From positions 1,513 to 65,512 of IMG/VR virus record IMGVR_UViG_3300027804_002460: a stretch of 64,000 bases of DNA, one strand, 5' to 3'. The position numbers and the translations under genes were made by a program. Numbering within the stretch: the first letter of the stretch is position 1; each line of letters begins with the position of its first letter. This document shows, piece by piece, positions 50,940 through 63,706 of this stretch. The notes beneath the pieces were generated by a model. That model saw only the letters and a list, made by a program, of their open reading frames with translations. It had not been told where the DNA came from and did no database searches. Source of the DNA: a virus. Lineage: Duplodnaviria > Caudoviricetes.

Positions 50940-52796
50940 TTATTTAACTTCCTCGAACTCTACATTTGCAAAGTCTTCTTCTGTTGCTTCAGCGTTGTTT
51001 GTTTGTTCATACAACTTCTGACTTATGGTTTGGAATTTTTTATTAACCTCTTCCATTAAAATTTTTACTTCTGAAATGTCTTTCTTGTCGTAAGCCGATT
51101 TTAATTTATCGATTGATGAATTAATTTCAGTTTTTTCATCTTCAGTAATTTTACCTTCGAGATCTTCCATAGATTTACCGACTTGGAAAATTAATGAGTC
51201 AGCGGAGTTTAAAGTATCAACTTCCTCTTTTAATTTTTTATCAGCTTCCGCATTCATTTCAGCTTCTTGTTTCATTCTCTCAACTTCTTCTTTTGATAGA
51301 CCTGAAGATGACTCAATTCGGATTGATTGTTGTTTGTTAGTTGCTTTATCAACTGCAGATACATTTATAATACCATTTGCATCGATATCAAAGGTTACCT
51401 CGATTTGAGGAGTTCCTCTTCTTGCTGGTGGTAATCCATCAAGGTGGAATTTACCAATAGTTCTGTTATCTCTTGCCATTGCTCTTTCACCTTGTAAAAC
51501 ATGTATTTCTACTGTTGGTTGATTATCTGCAGCTGTTGAGAATGTTTCTGATTTTTTTGTTGGGATAGTTGTGTTTGCATCAATCAATTTTGTAAATACA
51601 CCTCCCATAGTTTCAATACCTAATGAAAGTGGAGTTACGTCTAACAACAATACGTCTGTCACATCACCAGCTAAAACACCTCCTTGAATCGCAGCTCCCA
51701 AAGCAACTACCTCATCAGGATTTACCCCTTTTGAAGGTTCTTTACCAAAGAATTTTTTAACTGCTTCTTGGATGGAAGGAATACGAGTAGATCCACCAAC
51801 TAAAATAATCTCATCAATATCAGATGGTTTTAGTTTGGCATTTTTCAAAGCGGATTCACAAGGTTTAATTGTTCTATCAACCAATGATTGTGTTAATTGA
51901 TCAAACTTAGATTTTGTGATAGTCATTACTAAGTGTTTTGGTCCTGTTGCATCTGCAGTTACATATGGTAAGTTAATTTCAGTTTGAGGTGAAGAAGATA
52001 ACTCAATTTTAGCCTTTTCAGCCGCCTCACGAAGTCTCTGAAGTGCCATAGGATCTTTTGAAATATCCATACCATTTTCTTTTTTGAATTCGGAAACTAA
52101 GTGGTCAATTAAAGCCTGATCAAAGTCATCCCCACCTAAGTGAGTGTCCCCGTCAGTTGCTAACACCTCAAATACACCGTCACCAAGTTCCAATACTGAT
52201 ACGTCATGTGTTCCACCACCACAGTCAAATACTACAATTTTCATGTCTTTTGACATTTTATCAAGACCATAAGCCAAAGCCGCGGCTGTTGGTTCATTGA
52301 TAATTCTTTTTACTGTAAGACCAGCAATTTCACCAGCTTCTTTAGTCGCTTGACGTTGAGCATCGTTAAAATAAGCAGGAACTGTGATTACGGCTTCAGT
52401 TACAGATTGACCTAAATAGTCTTCTGCCGTTTGTTTCATTTTTTGAAGGACGGCCGCTGAGATTTCTTGTGGTGAATAAGTTCTATCGTTAATTTGAACT
52501 TTTGGTGAGTTATTTTCTTTAATAACTTTGTAAGGGACCTTTGTTGTTTCATTTTTAACCTCATCAAAAGATGATCCCATAAATCTTTTAATTGAGTAAA
52601 TTGTTTTGTCAGGGTTTGTTACCGCTTGACGTTTTGCAGGATCTCCGATTTTTCTTTCACCGTCTTTAATAAACCCCACAATTGATGGTGTTGTTCTTTT
52701 TCCTTCACTGTTAGCAATAACCACAGGTTCCTTGCCTTCCATTACGGCAACACACGAGTTAGTTGTTCCCAAGTCAATTCCAATTATTTTTCCCAT
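50940..52796 (-). CDS. dnaK: Hsp70 chaperone DnaK
   Basis: [43 protein letters not shown]-terminal VEFEEVK. Confidence 0.98.
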
Positions 52797-52842
52797 TTTT
52801 TTATCATTTTATTTTTATGTTTATTTTTTCCACACTTTTTAC

Positions 52843-52873
52843 CAAATATATGCCATTCCATAAAACCTGTCAA
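52843..52873 (-). promoter_or_regulatory. Bacteroidota-type sigma70 promoter for dnaK
   Basis: TTG-N20-TATATTTG on the minus strand. Confidence 0.6.
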
Positions 52874-52966
52874 TATGTCAGTATATTTTTTTTTATACTG
52901 ACAAAATAACAATATTGGACTTTTCTAAATTTATTTATTAGTTTTTGAATGTAAAACAATAGAAGT

Positions 52967-55006
52967 ATGTTAGAATTTATGGATGAAGGAAATGATAAAG
53001 CGAAAAAAAAGTCTGATTCAGGAACACCTGTGTTAGATAATTTTAGCAAGGATTTAAACAAATTAGCTCAAGAAGGTAAATTAGATCCTGTAATTGGTAG
53101 AAAGAAGGAAATCTTAAGGATTGCTCAGATACTTTCTCGAAGAAAGAAAAATAACCCAATTATTATTGGTGAGCCAGGTGCAGGAAAAACTGCAATCGTT
53201 GAGGGTCTTGCCATGATGATTCATGATGGTGAGTGTCCTAAGAATTTAATGGATAAAAGAATTGTTTCTTTAGACATGAATTCTTTGGTTGCTGGAACAA
53301 AATACCGTGGTCAGTTTGAAGAAAGAATGAAGGTAATCATTGAAGAACTTCAATCATCCCCAAACATCATCTTGTTTATTGACGAGATTCATACAATAGT
53401 TGGTGCGGGAAATAGTTCAGGTTCATTAGATGCATCTAACATCTTCAAACCTGCACTTTCTCGAGGTGAAATTCAGTGTATTGGTGCAACTACTTTAGAT
53501 GAGTATAGAACTAACTTTGAAAAGGACGGAGCATTAGAAAGAAGATTCCAAAAGGTAGTTGTGGATCCTGCAACAAAAGATGAAACTTTTGAAATCCTTA
53601 AATTAAGTAAGGAAAAGTATGAAGATCACCATAAAGTGACTTATGATGATGAGACGTTATGGACATTTGTTGAGTTAGCGGACCGTTATATTACAGATCG
53701 TGAGTTTCCTGATAAGGCTTTTGATATCTTGGATGAGGTTGGTGCAAGAATGCAAATTGACATAAAACTTCCTGAAGTTATTGAGAACTTAAAAGATGAG
53801 GCTAACAAAATTAAACAAGAAAAAATAAACGTAATCAAAAGACAAGACTACGAACAAGCCGCAGAACTCCGTGATCGTGAAAGAGGTGTAATTGCAAAAC
53901 TTGAGGAAGAAAAGAAAAAATTTGAGGAACATTTGAGAAGTAGTAAAAGAACTATTCCTGAAGAATTAGTTTACGAGGTTGTTTCAAACATGACTAAAAT
54001 CCCAATTTCAAACATCAATCTTGATGAAAGGAATAATCTTATTAATTTGACTGATAATTTGAGTTCAAAAGTAATTGGTCAAGAAGAAGCGGTTTTAAAA
54101 ATTACAAAAGCAATCCGTAGAAATAGAATGGGTATTAAAGACCCAAATAAACCAATCGGTTCATTTATTTTCTTAGGATCTACAGGTGTTGGTAAAACAT
54201 ATTTGGCAAAACAATTGGCAAAAGAAATCTTTGGAAGTGAAGATAATATGATTCGTGTGGACATGAGTGAATACCAAGAAAAACATACTATTTCTCGTTT
54301 GATCGGATCACCTCCAGGATATGTTGGTCATGATGAAGGAGGTCAATTAACAGAACAAGTTAAAAACAAACCTTACTCTGTTGTATTATTTGATGAGATT
54401 GAAAAAGCTCACAAAGACATTTTCTCAACACTTCTTCAGTTGTTAGATGATGGTCACATTACGGATTCATTAGGTCGTAAGATCAACTTCAAAAATTGTT
54501 TGATCATTATGACTTCCAATATTGGTGTTAAAAGATTACAAGATTTTGGTGCTGGTGTTGGATTCAAAACAGGTAAAAGTGAGGCGGTTAGAGAAGAAGA
54601 GAAAAGAGAAATTCTTAAAAAAGAACTAAGTAAATTCTTCGCCCCTGAATTCTTAAATCGTATTGATGATGTAGTTATATTCAATTCACTTGAAAAGAAA
54701 CATATTGATGTAATTACAAAACTTGAGGTTGACAGACTACTAAAAAGAGTCTTAGAAAAGAAATATATTTTCACTTATGAACAAGATCTAATCGATTACA
54801 TTTCTAAAGTGGGATTTGATGAAACATTTGGAGCTCGACCAATCAAAAGAGCAATCCAAGATAAAATTGAGGATTTAATTTCTGAAAAAATCTTGATGAT
54901 GGAGATCGAAGAAAATAAAGACTATGTCTTGAAAGTTGAGAATGATGAGGTTGTTGTTTCTAATAAAGAAGAAAAAGTTAAAAAAACAAGAAAAAAGAAA
55001 GAATAA
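52967..55006 (+). CDS. clpC: ClpC-like Hsp100 AAA+ ATPase lacking the N-terminal domain
   Basis: Two NBDs (GEPGAGKT, GSTGVGKT), UVR-type M domain (DYEQAAELRD), GVGF ClpP-docking loop; sequence starts at TPVLDNFSKDL. Confidence 0.85.
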   Translation: MLEFMDEGNDKAKKKSDSGTPVLDNFSKDLNKLAQEGKLDPVIGRKKEILRIAQILSRRKKNNPIIIGEPGAGKTAIVEGLAMMIHDGECPKNLMDKRIVSLDMNSLVAGTKYRGQFEERMKVIIEELQSSPNIILFIDEIHTIVGAGNSSGSLDASNIFKPALSRGEIQCIGATTLDEYRTNFEKDGALERRFQKVVVDPATKDETFEILKLSKEKYEDHHKVTYDDETLWTFVELADRYITDREFPDKAFDILDEVGARMQIDIKLPEVIENLKDEANKIKQEKINVIKRQDYEQAAELRDRERGVIAKLEEEKKKFEEHLRSSKRTIPEELVYEVVSNMTKIPISNINLDERNNLINLTDNLSSKVIGQEEAVLKITKAIRRNRMGIKDPNKPIGSFIFLGSTGVGKTYLAKQLAKEIFGSEDNMIRVDMSEYQEKHTISRLIGSPPGYVGHDEGGQLTEQVKNKPYSVVLFDEIEKAHKDIFSTLLQLLDDGHITDSLGRKINFKNCLIIMTSNIGVKRLQDFGAGVGFKTGKSEAVREEEKREILKKELSKFFAPEFLNRIDDVVIFNSLEKKHIDVITKLEVDRLLKRVLEKKYIFTYEQDLIDYISKVGFDETFGARPIKRAIQDKIEDLISEKILMMEIEENKDYVLKVENDEVVVSNKEEKVKKTRKKKE

Positions 55007-55053
55007 TTTTTTTATTAACAATTATTCAACTATCTTTGTGGAAACAATTTGAA

Positions 55054-56079
55054 ATGGATCTAAATAAATTTAAAGAACTCCTATCTGTCCCTACCAAGAC
55101 CTATAAGGAAAGTAAAATGGTAGAGTATTTAATTTCTACCATTGGGGATATGGATGGAGTTACTCTTACTTGTGACGAACATAATAACATATATGCGGTT
55201 AAAGGAACATTGGGTGAAGGGGAATTTTACCCAATGTTCATTTCTCACACAGACACAGTTCACGAACTTGTTGACCTTATTGATGTAAAAGAAGAATACC
55301 TTCTCCGTCCATATACATTTGGAAAAGATTTTGGTCAAGAACAAGTATTGTGTTTAAAAGCCTACGACAAAGATGGGAGACCGACAGGTATTGGTGGTGA
55401 TGACAAATGTGGTATCTACATTTGTTTAGAATTACTCCGTCAGTTAGATAAAGTCAAAGTTGCATTTTTTGTATCAGAAGAAACAGGTTGTCATGGATCA
55501 AAATTGGTAAATAAAGAGTTTTTAAAAGATGTTGGTTATTGTACTCAATACGATGCACCTGGCGATCACTTAATTTCATACTCTTGTATGGGAACCGTAT
55601 TATTTGATAAAGATGGTGAGTTTTTCAATACAGCAATTCGATCAATCACAAAAGGATTTGGTAATGAAATGATGGTTCAGTCTCACCCATACACAGATAT
55701 CATGATGATTAAACAACTATCTGACCTATCTTGTATCAACATGTCTTGTGGTTATTATAACATGCACACAGCAAATGAATTCGTTTGTATTGATGATGTT
55801 GAGAGATCAATTCAGGCAGGTAAAAATATGGTTGAGGATCTTGGGTTAAAAAAATACGAATTCAAAACGGAACCAAAACCAACAACTACCACAACAACTT
55901 TGTTTGATGATGAAAGTCCATTCTACGATGATATTCACCAACTAACATCTATTGATGTGATTGAGGAAAAAGATGGGTTTATAATTGCAGATATCTATGA
56001 TGAAAATCAATTCTATATCGATGATGAGGATGGGTACAAGTTATACGAGATTCTAAAAGAGCGTTATCGTTTTAATTGA
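55054..56079 (+). CDS. M28/M20-family zinc peptidase
   Basis: SHTDTVH, GGDDKCG, SEETG, QYD, YYNMHT; TATCTTTG promoter element at 55031-55038. Confidence 0.75.
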   Translation: MDLNKFKELLSVPTKTYKESKMVEYLISTIGDMDGVTLTCDEHNNIYAVKGTLGEGEFYPMFISHTDTVHELVDLIDVKEEYLLRPYTFGKDFGQEQVLCLKAYDKDGRPTGIGGDDKCGIYICLELLRQLDKVKVAFFVSEETGCHGSKLVNKEFLKDVGYCTQYDAPGDHLISYSCMGTVLFDKDGEFFNTAIRSITKGFGNEMMVQSHPYTDIMMIKQLSDLSCINMSCGYYNMHTANEFVCIDDVERSIQAGKNMVEDLGLKKYEFKTEPKPTTTTTTLFDDESPFYDDIHQLTSIDVIEEKDGFIIADIYDENQFYIDDEDGYKLYEILKERYRFN

Positions 56080-57203
56080 CCCGGAGCGATTCTAAACTCA
56101 GTTGGTTTAAATAGACCTGGCTGAGTTGCCATTGTAATTACTTCATTAGGAGTTGATAAACCATACTGACGATCCCCAAAGTAAGAATTTCTACCTACTA
56201 TATATTTTACTTTTAAGGTTTCAGGATCAACTTCCTCAACTCTGATAAACATATTTGTTTGACCTGGTATTTTTACACCGCTATTTTGAAAAAGACCTAA
56301 TGCACTAAGTTTATCCATAGTTTTTGAGTATTCAGGAGAAAATTCTTCTTGAGCCCTTTCTATATACTCATCAATTAAATTTACCAATTTTTCACAGGAT
56401 TGAGATTCAAACATTTCATTATCCATTACATAATATTCCATCTCATAATGTTCAGGAAGAGAATGTCTAAATTTTTTTTCAATTTTTTGTATTAACAAAT
56501 CAAGGGCTTTTCCATCAAATTCACCATCCTCAACAAATAACTGAACTAGATTACCCCAACTTATAAAATATAATCCAAAACACCACTTACCCCATTTCTC
56601 AACTCCAAAGTCACTTAATGTATCACAATATACCTTTTGTATTTCTTGTTTAGCACCTTCTTCAGTTGCATTTGATTTAGCAGAACATATAATGTCATCC
56701 ATTTCATCTCCAATATTTTGAAAGTATTTGTCCAATACTGAAGTTATTTGACTTTCATCATCAATTCTACTACCGTCTTCTTTAATATTATCAACAAGGT
56801 TAGGTGCAATTATTTTAAGTAATTCTCTTAATCTGATTTTTGCTTCACCACAAAGATAACCTAAAGTATATCCTTCTTGCCAATCATCATATGCTCGTTC
56901 TTGGCACGAATCATAAAAATCGTAAGAACCATAATACATACGATCATAGTTAATAGCATCCCACTCACCGTCAGATCCTTCTTCAAACGCAGGGTAATGA
57001 AAAAATTTCAAAAACTGTTCTAAATCTTCAAAATCAAATAATAAACCATCAGGTTTAATTTGAACCTTATTTAAATCAATGTCATAATCCTTAGTTATGA
57101 ATTCGACATCATCAGGAGACAACTTTCTTTTGTTTAAAAGAAGGATTTTTTGAAAGTCCGTCATTTCAGGAACATCATTTTCAATAAGAAGTCTTTTTTT
57201 CAT
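56064..57203 (-). CDS. Hypothetical protein
   Basis: 379 aa; TATTTATA 13 nt upstream. Confidence 0.75.
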   Translation of the reverse strand: MKKRLLIENDVPEMTDFQKILLLNKRKLSPDDVEFITKDYDIDLNKVQIKPDGLLFDFEDLEQFLKFFHYPAFEEGSDGEWDAINYDRMYYGSYDFYDSCQERAYDDWQEGYTLGYLCGEAKIRLRELLKIIAPNLVDNIKEDGSRIDDESQITSVLDKYFQNIGDEMDDIICSAKSNATEEGAKQEIQKVYCDTLSDFGVEKWGKWCFGLYFISWGNLVQLFVEDGEFDGKALDLLIQKIEKKFRHSLPEHYEMEYYVMDNEMFESQSCEKLVNLIDEYIERAQEEFSPEYSKTMDKLSALGLFQNSGVKIPGQTNMFIRVEEVDPETLKVKYIVGRNSYFGDRQYGLSTPNEVITMATQPGLFKPTEFRIAPGQLKR

Positions 57204-57218
57204 ATATTTATAAATATA

Positions 57219-57249
57219 TTGGATAATACAAATCTTTGTATTATATTTG
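57219..57249 (+). promoter_or_regulatory. Bacteroidota-type promoter for tmRNA
   Basis: TTG-N20-TATATTTG, 21 nt upstream of the mature 5' end. Confidence 0.65.
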
Positions 57250-57270: not shown

Positions 57271-57657
57271 GGGGGCGTTTTTGGATTTGACAGGTATTGG
57301 CTGAGGAATAAGGGCATGTAGGGACTGAGTTAATCTCTTTAAAAACTGACTTAGAAAACAACTGGCAATGTGCTAAACAAAATGGAAACTCTTGGATTAG
57401 TAAGAGGTTCTGAAGTTACTGTAGCTTAAGATAAGTTCGGAAACGGGGGGTCGGCAGACATATAACCTAGCAACAGAAGTCGTAGTTGTGGTGGATTACT
57501 ATTGAACCCTAAATCGAATGGTAACCATTGGTTGTTGATTTACGATGGTGAAGAACAAATCAACTATTTTGGGGTATTAGAAAATACCAACCTAAACATG
57601 TAGTCCTTATCTGACAGGATAAGCTGGACGAGGGTTCGAGTCCCTCCGCCTCCACCA
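57271..57657 (+). ncRNA. ssrA: Transfer-messenger RNA (tmRNA), 387 nt, predicted tag (A)GNVLNKMETLGLVRGSEVTVA*
   Basis: 5' GGGGGCG..GGATTTGAC; 3' T-arm GAGGGTTCGAGTCCCTC followed by CGCCTCCACCA; G3:U70 wobble; AACT|GGC resume context at 57364, stop at 57427-57429. Confidence 0.92.
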
Positions 57658-57660
57658 ACT

Positions 57661-57688
57661 AAACCTCATCTTCGGATGGGGTTTTTTT
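57661..57688 (+). terminator. tmRNA terminator
   Basis: AAACCTCATC-TTCG-GATGGGGTTT followed by a T run. Confidence 0.85.
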
Positions 57689-57709
57689 ATACGGTAAAAT
57701 TTAGGGCAT

Positions 57710-57738
57710 AAAAAAAGGGATCGATTCACATCGTCCCT
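57710..57738 (-). terminator. Minus-strand terminator closing the large ncRNA candidate
   Basis: AGGGA-TCGAT-TCAC-ATCG-TCCCT hairpin with an A run on the + strand. Confidence 0.7.
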
Positions 57739-57780
57739 AAATTTTTTACCGGTTAGCTCCATTCTATAAAAGAAATAAAA

Positions 57781-58620
57781 CGCTGAGATTACACGTTTGA
57801 TTGAGAACCTTTAGAGTCATTATTGTTTCTACTCCTATCCACTTCCTTTTGAGAAGTATTTCTCAGTGACGGTCTTTTAGGTGTACCACTCCTTGAGATA
57901 ACAGTTACTCTCTTATTACTCGACTCTCTTCGAGGATGCCTCCCCAACTCATCCTTGCGGGACTAGAGGTGTTTGGTAAGAATACGATCAGACTTGCGAT
58001 CCTTTCGTGCAATGAACGGCTCATTACTATGTAGTCACCTTTCACTGTTACCTGACGGACACTTTTGCTTACTGTAGTTTCATATTGGAAAATATCAACT
58101 TCCATAAGTTTTTGTGTCGTGGATTGTAGAAGTAGTGGTCCGTCACGGGCTTCGCTATCTTTTGAACAACGAAATACTCAACTACTCCTTGAAATGTCCC
58201 CATCTCCATACTTTAAGATTACTTCGAGATCAACCCCTTGGTAGAGGTTTATCAAGGTTAATAACAGCACCACCTGTACACTAACATACCTTTCGGTTTT
58301 AAGTACCCTTTTGTATTGGAACACGCAATAATGAAATCGGATAACTTCATGTTTTGCAATATCCCTACGGGTTATTCCTATTGGTGTTCCCACCTCAATC
58401 AGACGACCCACATCGCCAAATCACTTAACCAGTTTCCCTACAGCGTTGCCCTCGGTACTCAAGCTTAAGCGGTATCCCGCTTGTGTACTCGACCTCGATT
58501 ACTCAAGGCGCAAATCGGTTACACTTCCGACTCACTTTATCCTACTTTCGTAGTTTATTTTATGGACTATACACGGCCCAATATCTTTATCATTCCAAGA
58601 AGAGACTTACATCTCAATCA
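57781..58620 (-). ncRNA. Large structured ncRNA candidate (~840 nt core; GOLLD-like by size and context)
   Basis: Visibly GC-richer than the flanks, no credible ORF, many GNRA-capped hairpins on the minus strand, 5' TGATTGAGA complementary to 3' TCTCAATCA, own promoter and terminator. Confidence 0.65.
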
Positions 58621-58968: not shown

Positions 58969-60321
58969 TTACAATATTTTTTTAATAATATCTTTGATTC
59001 TGTCTGTTTGTTCTTGTAGGGCTTCCTGTTTTGCGATATCTTTTTTGAACGATTCCTCATCACCTCTTGCCAAACTTATCATGGCGTTAAGACCTCCTAA
59101 TCCCATAAGATCCAAAACATTTAATTTTGAGTCGTCTTTACCAGATGATTTACTATCTGTTTTTGCTAAATTATCTGAAGATATTGAATCTGAAGATATT
59201 GAATCTGAAGATTGACCCCCAACTTGGAAATTAGCTAAAACTTCATTTGCTTTTCTTTCTCCCATTGATGAGGTTTGTCCACCGGCATTTTTTGTGACAA
59301 AGTATTTTACAGCATCATCTACGTTTTCAAACTTATCATTTAATGCCGAACCCTCTGGTGCTAAGAAATTGATCATTGCATCTGCAGCCCCTTCAGGATT
59401 ATTTAAATCATCAGGATTACCCTCAAAACCATATTTACGATAGTTAGCTCGACCTGTTATTTGATTGAACCCTCTACCTCTATATTTGTATCCATCACCA
59501 GGATCTGTATTACCTAATTTAATACCTGAATTCCTTCCATAAACACAATCAAAGAATTTTTCATCATCACACTTGTGTTTTTTACATCTTTGTCCTCTAT
59601 CTTTGAATATCTGTATGATTCTACTGTCGTCAGTACCACAATATCCTTTTTCATTTTTTGGTACAAATCCACTCTCTTTACCTATAGTTGCCAATATACC
59701 TAAAACAGGTATCGGATTAGTTATACCTTTATCTTTAAGTTTATCGATAATCATATCAATATTTGACTTTGCTTCTCCCTTATATGCGTTTTGATTAATT
59801 GCTAAATTTGATAAATCAACATCAGAAGGTGATGACTTTCCTTTTTGAGTTGGTTCAGAAACATCCGAACCTGATTTCATACCTTGAGCACTTGATTTAT
59901 GTTCCCAATGCCAAGGTTCGGTTCTTGGATTTTTAAATGGATTAGAGAATCCGAATTTTGATGCGTTTTGGGTTAACCATTTATGTGCCGGATCACCATA
60001 TTTTACTTTAAGATCCACAGCACTCCCCCAACCATGATTAGATGTGCCAGGATAAGCAACAGGAGTATTTGAAGTACCTTTTTTTCTTTTTTTACCCGAA
60101 AGTTTATAATATTTCCAATCAAATATTTTGTCTTGGATTTCATAAGGTCTGTATGAATCCGTAATACCCCAACTTATTCCATCTTTTTTTGCTGCATTAA
60201 CCATTTCAGAGTAAGCATTTGCCGCTTCACTATTTAACTGATGGCCAGATCCAATTGGAGTTAATCCCGATAACTTACCGTTTTGGGCTTCGATTAATAC
60301 TTGTTTTTTTGTTAACATCAA
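58969..60321 (-). CDS. Dual-domain peptidoglycan hydrolase (M15/VanY-like peptidase + GH19 lysozyme-like)
   Basis: SYRPYEIQ...[13 protein letters not shown]...EPWHW (M15); KESG...[15 protein letters not shown] (GH19). Confidence 0.85.
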
Positions 60322-60354
60322 TTAATTGTAATTTATTATAAATATTACAACTAA

Positions 60355-60822
60355 TCAAAACCATTCAGGTATTTCTCTATTTTTCCATTTTGCGAAATCT
60401 TTTTTAGCACCTCGATAGTAATTTCTGTAAGATTCAATTACATCATCAACCTTATATTCATCAGGCATCGCTTTAGGAGGAGTGGTAAAATCTTTGTCAC
60501 AAATATTTGGTAAGTTTGTGACACACCATTCTATAACATCTTGTGACTTATGTCTTTTACCATATCGATATGTGTATTCTTTACACAACTCTAAACCAAA
60601 ATCACATAAGTAAAGATAGTTGGATAAAGACTCTCGAGACCAAATGGCACATGGGTGATTTTTGTGTGATAACTTGTATGGTATATTGGACGTATCGTTA
60701 CTGGTTACATGGTGAACACCACATAAAAGTTGTGCGGTTTCTAATATCATTTTAACAACATGTTTGTCGCAATGATATTTTGCACATTTGTTAGTATCGA
60801 AGTCTAAAAAGAAAATATTCAT
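60355..60822 (-). CDS. Pyrimidine-dimer DNA glycosylase-like protein (DenV family)
   Basis: MNIFFLD...HCDKHVVKMILETAQLL...HKNHPC...EYTYRYGKRHK. Confidence 0.8.
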   Translation of the reverse strand: MNIFFLDFDTNKCAKYHCDKHVVKMILETAQLLCGVHHVTSNDTSNIPYKLSHKNHPCAIWSRESLSNYLYLCDFGLELCKEYTYRYGKRHKSQDVIEWCVTNLPNICDKDFTTPPKAMPDEYKVDDVIESYRNYYRGAKKDFAKWKNREIPEWF

Positions 60823-62124: not shown

Positions 62125-62138
62125 ATTTTTAATTTTAG

Positions 62139-62212
62139 TGGTCCCACTTGGGCTCGAACCAAGGACCTAATGATTATGAGTCATTTGCTCTGACCGACTG
62201 AGCTATAGGACC
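62139..62212 (-). tRNA. tRNA with CAT anticodon (probably Ile2, lysidine-type)
   Basis: GGTCCTATAGCTCAGTCGGTCAGAGC-AATGA-CTCATAA-TCATT...GGTTCGAGCC...GGGACCA; no encoded CCA. Confidence 0.88.
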
Positions 62213-62220
62213 AAGTGAAA

Positions 62221-62463
62221 TTATGCTTTCACCATGTGTTTTTCCATCAACTCTGTAGCTTTAGCAACCGCCAAATCTTTAGTTTTAAATCCTTTCTCAA
62301 CAACTTTTTTAGAGTGGTACACAACATACTCAGTTGCTTTAACCTCACCTTTTAACCATTTGAATTTTGTTGCTTTAGCTGGTTTAAGGGTGTCTTTCGC
62401 ATAGATGTCGAAGTGTCCTACTTTACAGATGTAACGTCCTTTGTTTCCTGATTTTGTTGCCAT
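62221..62463 (-). CDS. Hypothetical basic protein
   Basis: 80 aa ORF between tRNAs. Confidence 0.65.
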   Translation of the reverse strand: MATKSGNKGRYICKVGHFDIYAKDTLKPAKATKFKWLKGEVKATEYVVYHSKKVVEKGFKTKDLAVAKATELMEKHMVKA

Positions 62464-62506
62464 GTGTTTTTTTTTATTTTAAGTTAAACAATTATACAAT
62501 TTTTTG

Positions 62507-62578
62507 CGGTCCATGCGAGAATCGAACTCGCGGCTCCACCGTGACAGGGTGGAATGTTAGCCACTACACCAATGGACC
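62507..62578 (-). tRNA. trnD: tRNA-Asp(GTC)
   Basis: GGTCCAT...CCACC-CTGTCAC-GGTGG...GAGTTCGATTCTC-ATGGACC-G. Confidence 0.9.
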
Positions 62579-62583
62579 TATTT

Positions 62584-62862
62584 TTATATCAAAGCATCCC
62601 ATTCGGATACTACAAATTCAAGTTTTAAAAATCCTTCACCAGGGATGTAGGTTACTTGAAGTCCCCCTGATCCGATACTCATTTGAGTTTCAATGGACTC
62701 AGTTAGCATCCGTCTTGCTTTTTCTCTAATTTCACCTTGACATGGGATCTTCTCTTCAGCACCTATCCATTCCCAACGAAGAGCCCTCATCGTTTTATGA
62801 ACCTTGTCGAAATCGAACCAGTCCATTATGTTGTCTATTGCCTTTCTTTCTTCCTCTGTCAT
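62584..62862 (-). CDS. Hypothetical protein
   Basis: 92 aa; TATATTTG element at 62867-62874. Confidence 0.65.
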   Translation of the reverse strand: MTEEERKAIDNIMDWFDFDKVHKTMRALRWEWIGAEEKIPCQGEIREKARRMLTESIETQMSIGSGGLQVTYIPGEGFLKLEFVVSEWDALI

Positions 62863-62885
62863 AGTACAAATATAATAATAATTTT

Positions 62886-63155
62886 TTACAATTTCTGCAC
62901 ATGCTCCATAATTTCTGTAACTTCCTCAGGTTTTAAATAACCAATTACATCATTTGTTACAGGTGTCTTGTAAGTTAATTCACCTTTTTTATCTAAAACT
63001 GCAATTTCAAACAAACCATCTTTTCCACCATATGAATATGTGTGAGATACAACACTAACACCATATCCATTTTCAAACATCATTCGAGAACGAACACCTG
63101 ACATAAATGGTTCATCTGATATTTTATCAAATTCTAAATCTTCAAATTTTTTCAT
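62886..63155 (-). CDS. Hypothetical phage protein
   Basis: 89 aa; YSYGGKDGLFEIAVL. Confidence 0.7.
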   Translation of the reverse strand: MKKFEDLEFDKISDEPFMSGVRSRMMFENGYGVSVVSHTYSYGGKDGLFEIAVLDKKGELTYKTPVTNDVIGYLKPEEVTEIMEHVQKL

Positions 63156-63330
63156 AACTCTAATTAAATTAAATTTGACTTGTGAAGTATACGTTGTTCT
63201 TTATACCCCTTTGATATTCCCCGCGGTTAGTCAAACCGGATAGAGCGTTTCCCTATCAGAAGTTCCATACAAGGTATCACCCTGCTTCTCATCGTATTGG
63301 ACATACTATTCGGTGATGAACCGAACCGTG

Positions 63331-63451
63331 TAGTCAGGACAGGACTCGAACCTGCAACGATGCAACCTTTATGACTTCTCGCATCCAAGAGCTTATGGAC
63401 CGTGGCGTTTTCAGGGTGTGATACCATTTTCACATTACGCATTACCTAACT
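63331..63451 (-). ncRNA. Expanded tRNA-like element (121 nt)
   Basis: Acceptor AGTTAGG/CCTGACT-A and canonical T-arm GCAGG-TTCGAGT-CCTGT, with an oversized multi-hairpin interior. Confidence 0.45.
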
Positions 63452-63474
63452 TACCTATCTACCTTGACAGGGTG

Positions 63475-63546
63475 TAGTCGGTACGGGATTCGAACCCGTG
63501 TGACAAGGATGAAAACCTTGTATCCTGACCCCTAGATGAACCGACC
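63475..63546 (-). tRNA. trnE: tRNA-Glu(TTC)
   Basis: GGTCGGT...CAAGG-TTTTCAT-CCTTG...CGGGTTCGAATCCCG-TACCGACT-A. Confidence 0.88.
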
Positions 63547-63558
63547 ATCTAATTATTG

Positions 63559-63628
63559 TGGACACTGTGGGAATCGAACCCAAACGATCTGATTGCAAAT
63601 CAGTCGACCTGCCGTCGGCATCAGGCCC
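63559..63628 (-). tRNA. Atypical tRNA, probably Ala(TGC)
   Basis: CTGA-TTTGCAA-TCAG anticodon arm, G3:U70 pair, bulged acceptor stem. Confidence 0.55.
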
Positions 63629-63633
63629 ATTTG

Positions 63634-63706
63634 AGCGGGAGAAGGGATTCGAACCCTCAACAGCCAGCTTGGAAGGCTGGAACTCTACCAATTGAGCTAC
63701 TCCCGC
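63634..63706 (-). tRNA. trnG: tRNA-Gly(TCC)
   Basis: GCGGGAGTAGCTCAATTGGTAGAG...CCAGC-CTTCCAA-GCTGG...GGTTCGAATCC...CTCCCGC-T. Confidence 0.95.

Follow-up and report, generated by a model that had tools for sequence, protein, structure and literature searches.

A freshwater jumbo phage encodes a tmRNA with a long tag that is unlike the tags of its likely hosts. We analyzed a 64 kb stretch of DNA (hereafter the window; ~30% G+C) out of the 65.5 kb IMG/VR virus record IMGVR_UViG_3300027804_002460 and found a one-piece tmRNA gene with a tag frame of 21 sense codons, which is long for a tmRNA. The record has a completeness of 22% (CheckV). Five near-complete genomes bearing the same tmRNA are 291-304 kb in length, indicating that the window is a fragment of an uncultured freshwater jumbo phage of ~300 kb. 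The phage host is most likely a member of the Flavobacteriia. Based on the comparisons described below, we judge the chances to be somewhat better than even that this is a working, expressed phage tmRNA that adds a 21-residue degron tag of altered specificity, read by an AAA+ protease. The features of the locus are listed in Table 1.

Table 1. The tmRNA gene, its parts, and the genes upstream of it (window coordinates)
Feature	Position	Strand	Remarks
Hsp70/DnaK	50940-52796	-	Pfam HSP70, 870 bits
ClpC-type double AAA+ unfoldase without N-domain	52967-55006	+	Pfam AAA, AAA_2, AAA_lid_9, ClpB_D2-small
M20/M42-like peptidase	55036-56079	+	weak: Pfam Peptidase_M20 31 bits, M42 24 bits
Further gene between peptidase and tmRNA	56064-57203	-	
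Possible Bacteroidota-type promoter box, TAnnTTTG	57242-57249	+	22 nt before the mature 5' end; inferred
One-piece tmRNA gene (ssrA), CCA encoded	57271-57657	+	387 nt; Rfam RF00023
Acceptor stem, 5' strand	57271-57277	+	pairs with 57647-57653
Pseudoknot 1	57320-57352	+	stem 1: 57320-57324/57334-57338; stem 2: 57327-57332/57347-57352
Invariant A at -4 of the resume codon	57360	+	equivalent of E. coli A86
Resume codon GGC (Gly)	57364-57366	+	invariant in 29 of 29 versions
Tag reading frame, 21 sense codons and TAA	57364-57429	+	stop TAA at 57427-57429
Helix-5-like hairpin holding the last tag codons	57415-57444	+	stop codon in loop; RNAalifold consensus
T-arm, acceptor 3' strand, discriminator A and CCA	57630-57657	+	top posterior probability in the Rfam alignment
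Intrinsic terminator	57661-57691	+	10-pair stem, tetraloop, T run; directly 3' of the tmRNA

The tmRNA gene was found by its Rfam model and missed by ARAGORN. A sequence-only reading of the window had proposed a phage-encoded tmRNA and named both programs as checks. The gene matched RF00023 over the full length of the model (positions 1-374 of 374) with 114.5 bits (gathering score of 47; E = 5.6e-44), bearing out that proposal in a viral record. ARAGORN called four tRNAs in the window and no tmRNA. On 128 sequences of the family it made nine calls, mostly in wrong frames, and recovered the 21-codon tag in only two, and we dropped it as a definer of the tag because it misses or mis-frames this family of tmRNAs. 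Two loci from bacterial bins that had no ARAGORN call (L149 and L156) were ordinary tmRNAs cut by the end of the locus.

We assembled a family of related phage tmRNAs, in part with searches that left the start of the tag unconstrained. Our first seed, an exact 20-mer spanning the resume codon, matched 73 viral contigs. Because this seed fixes the start of the tag, we used two further seeds that do not, one in pseudoknot 1 and one at the tag end. A profile search over all fetched loci then gave 127 family tmRNAs, 54 of which did not contain the first seed. The 121 complete tag regions used for comparing tags fell into 29 different nucleotide versions, which encode 18 different peptides. The family tmRNAs (loci L004-L140) are mosaic, with several types of acceptor stem, an encoded CCA in part of the members, insertions of up to ~170 nt in the pseudoknot region, and lengths of 385-559 nt. 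Identical tag versions were joined to differing tRNA-like ends, which suggests recombination inside the tmRNA gene within the family.

The alanine-accepting end of the RNA is under selection, as judged from covariation. In the acceptor stem, G3 (57273) pairs with U70 (57651), the alanine identity pair. This pair was kept in all well-parsed members of the family and positions 4-7 varied by compensatory pairs, the pattern from which we conclude that selection acts on this end. The 3' motif that contains the T-arm was also present in 19 bacterial species genomes, 13 of which belong to the Flavobacteriales or Bacteroidia. In pseudoknot 1, every position was paired in 76-79 of the 79 distinct sequences, and five of the pairs occurred as two or three pair types. 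The middle of the Rfam alignment, where pseudoknots 2-4 would be located, had low posterior probability, and large insertions occur within the family. Upstream of the gene, a TAnnTTTG box was located 28-39 nt from the tmRNA 5' end in 55 of 70 relatives; across the window this motif was not clearly enriched (123 occurrences versus 103 +/- 9.5 expected, with 3 of 100 shuffles as high).

Several independent features place the resume codon at GGC 57364, as far as can be told by comparison. The Rfam alignment sets this GGC on the consensus resume codon. Pseudoknot 1 ends 11 nt before it, compared to 12 nt in the E. coli tmRNA (PMC2481249). All 32 variants of the upstream sequence had an A at -4, and positions -1 to -3 varied; in E. 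coli, the corresponding A86, which is nearly universal, sets the frame exactly four nucleotides downstream (PMC2481249). The GGC is at position 94 of the tmRNA, versus 93-98 in Flavobacteriaceae tmRNAs with the same ...AAAY-GGC context, and in part of the phage relatives the resume context was identical to the Flavobacteriaceae one.

Resumption one base later, at GCA 57365, would give a three-residue tag, AMC, and had been raised in the sequence-only reading as an example of an outcome that would overturn the long frame. GCA is the commonest bacterial resume codon and, in the window, it too has an A at -4 (57361). However, the base at 57361 varied among the relatives, and that at 57360 did not. 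The AMC frame ended at codon 4 in only 23 of the 29 versions, with the stop shifted to codon 12-13 in the other six, and it had 21 synonymous versus 58 radical codon changes. The comparison across the 29 versions thus refutes the AMC frame, which is not conserved, and we give resumption at GCA next to no chance.

The tag peptide is under purifying selection, according to the pattern of codon changes in the family. All 121 complete copies had 21 sense codons followed by a stop codon (TAA, and once TGA), with no insertions or deletions. We counted codon changes on a minimum spanning tree and scored the non-synonymous changes by their mean BLOSUM62 value. In the frame set by GGC there were 38 synonymous and 36 non-synonymous changes, the latter mostly conservative (mean BLOSUM62 of +0.72). 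The +1 frame had 21 synonymous and 58 non-synonymous changes (mean of -1.59) and the +2 frame had three and 77 (mean of -1.05). Internal stop codons were present in the +1 frame in 29 of 29 versions and in the +2 frame in 27 of 29. Leu4 was encoded by CTA, CTT, TTA, or TTG, and Arg14 by AGA or CGT. In the relatives found without a constraint on the tag start, the first five codons varied in nucleotides and kept Gly-Asn/Asp-Val-Leu. Pairwise pN/pS did not separate the GGC frame from the +1 frame (0.55 versus 0.64) in a frame so short, and we relied instead on the number of stops, on the diversity of codons compared to that of residues, and on the changes on the spanning tree. The openness of the GGC frame is far more than chance would give. 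The GGC-opened frame of 21 codons ending in VTVA, as proposed from the sequence of the window, was therefore upheld by the Rfam alignment and by every complete copy, and the comparison of related phage tmRNAs that had been suggested along with it revealed conservation at the level of codons.

The 3' end of the frame is constrained as RNA and as peptide alike, as inferred from a conserved helix-5-like hairpin over the last tag codons. The hairpin was paired in 76-79 of 79 sequences, and a synonymous third-position change at 57417 was compensated at 57442 in eight of them. Helix 5, and not the peptide, accounts for part of the nucleotide conservation at this end of the frame. A second hairpin, at ~57389-57407 in the middle of the frame, was predicted by folding the single sequence and was absent from the RNAalifold consensus; the variants seem to fold mid-frame hairpins in other registers.

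The conserved residues of the tag include its hydrophobic C-terminus. Six residues were invariant (G1, L4, G11, V18, V20, and A21), the C-terminal five were near-invariant, positions 3, 7, 10, 12, and 13 were always hydrophobic, and positions 5, 9, and 14-16 varied. The tag ends in Val-Thr-Val-Ala and not in the canonical Ala-Ala (LAA-type) degron end. Together with the alanine from the charged tmRNA, the predicted addition is 22 residues. A degenerate pattern for the tag peptide had no matches in 185,579 species genomes of bacteria and archaea, and the tag therefore appears to be private to phages. Its fixed length and conserved sequence argue for something that binds or reads it.

To us, a degron of altered specificity is a better account of the tag than a protective tail. 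By analogy, a degron is the most likely function because a hydrophobic C-terminus is common to tmRNA degrons and because there are precedents for other ends: tags engineered in their last three residues (LVA and others) are routinely used to tune degradation, and the long tag of the mycoplasma tmRNA is a Lon degron. In light of these engineered and mycoplasma tags, the premise that a terminal Ala-Ala is the sole degron, on which the sequence-only reading had relied, was too narrow. That reading had proposed that the tagged protein is either re-routed or spared. Re-routing to a different reader is plausible, and sparing fits poorly with purifying selection. In favor of a role in which ribosomes are freed and the tagged protein is spared or sent to a fate other than proteolysis, such as by evading ClpX for lack of Ala-Ala, the tag is without the YALAA end of host-type tags and is absent from all the bacterial genomes searched. 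However, a tail that only supplies a stop codon should drift, and here the length is fixed, six residues do not change, and the other changes are synonymous or conservative. In addition, known degrons have a similar hydrophobic C-terminus, and tags with changes in the last three residues do serve for degradation. We consider sparing improbable, and a neutral or protective tail of any kind unlikely.

The phage tmRNA resembles those of Flavobacteriaceae in its overall architecture, the G3-U70 pair, and the position of its resume codon, and differs from them in its tag. The T-arm and acceptor 3' strand are identical to those of the 13 Flavobacteriales or Bacteroidia genomes. Flavobacteriaceae tmRNAs with the same T-arm have nine-codon tags (GENNYALAA, GEDNYALAA, and GENTYALAA, as identified by ARAGORN), and the bacterial tmRNAs that share this T-arm resume at GGC or GGA at position 93-98, in an ...AAAY-GG context. 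In contrast, the phage tag has 21 codons and ends in VTVA instead of YALAA, and the phage RNA can be aligned to bacterial tmRNAs only at the tRNA-like ends. The initial description of the tag as unusually long and non-canonical thus holds, with more than twice the codons of the host-type tags and without their YALAA end.

The tmRNAs of Mollicutes (Mycoplasma and Mesoplasma) provide a precedent for a tag that has changed its protease. Their tags are likewise far longer than the usual ten residues, have a non-LAA end, and are conserved within the lineage, and they are read by Lon and not by ClpXP, a documented protease switch of a tag. There are two differences from the phage tag. In Mollicutes, the change in the tag accompanies the loss of ClpXP, whereas here the tag is viral and the hosts keep an ordinary tag; and the two kinds of tag have no sequence similarity.

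The tmRNA is present in RNA libraries. A 651-nt stretch, 59% of it tmRNA, was represented by 37-51% of its sampled words in 14 metatranscriptome runs from freshwater, lakes, and rivers, taken from separate studies. Contigs from the RNA libraries of four studies cover 57280-57629 (333-352 nt, with the fourth made up of two overlapping shorter contigs), and one of these is identical to the window. None of the indels listed for these contigs (at 57352, 57430, 57485, and 57534) falls within the tag frame. The flanks at 57188-57248 and 57676-57736 had no cover by RNA contigs, and such gaps carry no evidential weight. The contigs are blind to ends, strand, and level, so that they document presence in RNA and do not amount to a mapped transcript.

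A second structured RNA is located next to the tmRNA gene. GOLLD RNA (RF02032, 336 bits, full model) is at 57780-58189 (-), convergent to the tmRNA. Of the 102 relatives whose downstream sequence was long enough, 67 had the same arrangement, always with GOLLD on the strand opposite the tmRNA. Over 57737-58500, summed contig depths in four metatranscriptomes ranged from thousands to tens of thousands. The RNA cover passes the 5' edge of the Rfam model and extends to at least 58500, and the GOLLD RNA is therefore probably longer than the model. Downstream of GOLLD, 58969-60822 (-) encodes a protein of 450 residues that has a VanY D-Ala-D-Ala carboxypeptidase domain and may be an endolysin or cell-wall enzyme, and also a homologue of pyrimidine-dimer DNA glycosylase.

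A cluster of four tRNAs (Met-CAT, Asp-GTC, Glu-TTC, and Gly-TCC) is at 62138-63706 (-), 4.5 kb from the tmRNA. Its proximity is the only fact that favors a tie between the tmRNA and tRNA-cleaving host defences, and we regard that tie as speculation.

Genes for protein folding and degradation adjoin the tmRNA. The cluster at 50940-56079 encodes DnaK, a ClpC-type unfoldase, and an M20/M42-like peptidase. The unfoldase aligned to residues 149-791 of S. aureus ClpC in a single continuous alignment (713 bits), and its alignment to ClpB broke into two stretches. Alignments to ClpC of S. aureus and B. subtilis began at their residue 146-149 (residue 6-9 of the phage protein), indicating that the phage protein has no N-domain; there was also no Pfam match to Clp_N in it. 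A V-G-F in the phage protein aligned with the A-G-F of S. aureus ClpC, in the loop that docks ClpP. The ClpC gene was present in five of five near-complete relatives and, at 46-99% identity, ~3.3 kb upstream and on the tmRNA strand in the loci of 86 relatives. The peptidase gene adjoined the tmRNA in 103 relatives and that for DnaK in nine loci only.

The set of rescue and proteolysis genes varies within the family. SmpB and ClpP are both encoded by one of the five near-complete relatives (record G002 of 296 kb, loci L141 and L167; SmpB 143 bits, ClpP 160 bits), and the other four encode neither. No Lon was found among the five. For most of the family, host factors must therefore be assumed.

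We considered whether the phage ClpC might be the reader of the tag. In this case, the N-domain-less ClpC, docked on host ClpP, would specifically recognize the tag as an orthogonal degron, independently of host ClpX. Stalled products would be destroyed, with the adjoining peptidase helping to recycle their amino acids. The properties of the protein (a V-G-F docking loop and no N-domain), its presence in all five near-complete relatives, its conserved place upstream of the tmRNA at identities down to 46%, and the DnaK and peptidase genes in the same cluster are consistent with this proposal. However, the neighborhood is weak evidence by itself, as the synteny of ClpC also fits shared descent, DnaK is adjacent in few loci, and just one of the five relatives brings its own ClpP. 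In addition, phages that encode no Clp ATPase have long tag frames (see below). We therefore hold this proposal with low confidence, and treat the neighboring ClpC only as a candidate reader, and a doubtful one.

That most relatives lack an SmpB of their own also bears on a different possibility, in which the RNA is not translated but serves as a decoy, sequestering SmpB of the host or interfering with its trans-translation. Truncated elements of this kind exist in phages, such as that of phage DS6A, which consists of a tRNA-like domain only (PMC4131195). In contrast, the RNA described here has kept a full mRNA-like domain, with codon-level conservation, a fixed stop codon, pseudoknot 1, and the frame-setting A, all of which would be needless for a decoy. 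We consider a decoy very unlikely.

Cultured phages of Cellulophaga have predicted long tag frames that are comparable to the one in the window. Among 50,697 phage records, similar sequences were found in Cellulophaga phages only. One tmRNA (Rfam 86.6 bits), annotated in Calle, is common to Calle_1, phi38:1, and phi40:1. In the crAss-like phage phi14:2, a tmRNA-like gene of 470 nt (L171:901-1370; KC821624 4031-4500) is not annotated, and is overlaid in the phage record with the small 'hypothetical protein' coding sequences gp012-gp014; ARAGORN calls this tmRNA, and its score is under the Rfam gathering score. The hosts of these phages are Flavobacteriaceae, and their tRNA-like 3' end is 97% identical to that of the window over 32 nt. 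Both Calle_1 and phi14:2 have the Flavobacteriaceae resume context and GGA, followed by an open frame of 30 codons in Calle_1 (L168:1261-1350) and 38 codons in phi14:2 (L171:984-1097). These frames start with Gly-Asn and end in small hydrophobic residues, and the other frames shut after 4-12 codons. ARAGORN sets the resume points of both tmRNAs later than the Flavobacteriaceae-type context. The Cellulophaga phages differ from the window phage in their genome size (73 and 100 kb), and no Clp ATPase was found in Calle_1 or phi14:2, indicating that long tags need no phage ClpC.

The relationship between the tags of the Cellulophaga phages and that of the window is tentative. The similarity between the Calle tag and the tags of the window family (z = 3.1; 113 of 20,000 shuffles) is only suggestive of homology. 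However, the RNA profile of the family aligned to the Calle and phi14:2 tmRNAs at the tRNA-like ends only. A pattern for Calle-type tags, searched for in viral contigs, matched only the two isolates' own records. Based on these comparisons, we treat the Calle and phi14:2 tags as analogous cases and not as proven homologues of the window tag.

Based on the selection on the peptide, our preferred reading is that the phage tmRNA adds a degron of altered specificity. Following the mechanism established for tmRNAs, the RNA would be charged with alanine through G3-U70 and would enter stalled ribosomes with SmpB, which in most relatives would be that of the host. Translation would resume at GGC 57364, placed by the A at -4 and 11 nt past pseudoknot 1. 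The ribosome would then add the alanine and the 21 encoded residues and terminate at the UAA at 57427, within the helix 5 loop. An AAA+ protease would read the resulting tag, with its hydrophobic C-terminus, as a degradation signal of distinct specificity. This candidate reader could be a Clp or Lon enzyme of the host, or the phage N-domain-less ClpC docked on host ClpP.

Phage tmRNAs have been reported before, in mycobacteriophages and in Bacillus phage G, and ~2.3% of phage genomes carry one. Huge phages with tmRNA and SmpB genes have also been described, and the marine phage Melnitz has a two-piece tmRNA. As in the window phage, the huge phages and Melnitz encode an RNA for ribosome rescue in a large genome. 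The earlier reports contain no analysis of the tags, and those on huge phages and Melnitz are based on ARAGORN, which misses or mis-frames the tmRNAs of the window family.

The benefit of a tmRNA to a phage is an open question, and the tags have hardly been examined. The tag described here belongs to a large and widespread family (127 contigs, and metatranscriptomes from lakes and rivers), is selected as a peptide, is unlike that of the host, and goes unseen by the standard tool for annotation. If it is an orthogonal degron, then it would be a useful part for synthetic biology, as the mycoplasma tag and Lon have already become. It is conceivable, although we doubt it, that in phages of Flavobacteriia, whether podoviruses of 73 kb or jumbo phages of 300 kb, long and private tags that start with Gly-Asn have taken the place of the nine-residue host tag, forming a virus-specific marking code, and that the tag of the jumbo phages is an orthogonal degron for phage ClpC on host ClpP that clears and recycles stalled products. 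The cultured Cellulophaga phages, with their comparable long frames, provide a laboratory system for questions about the tag. With a peptide under selection in hand, the question of why phages carry tmRNA narrows to that of what binds this peptide.
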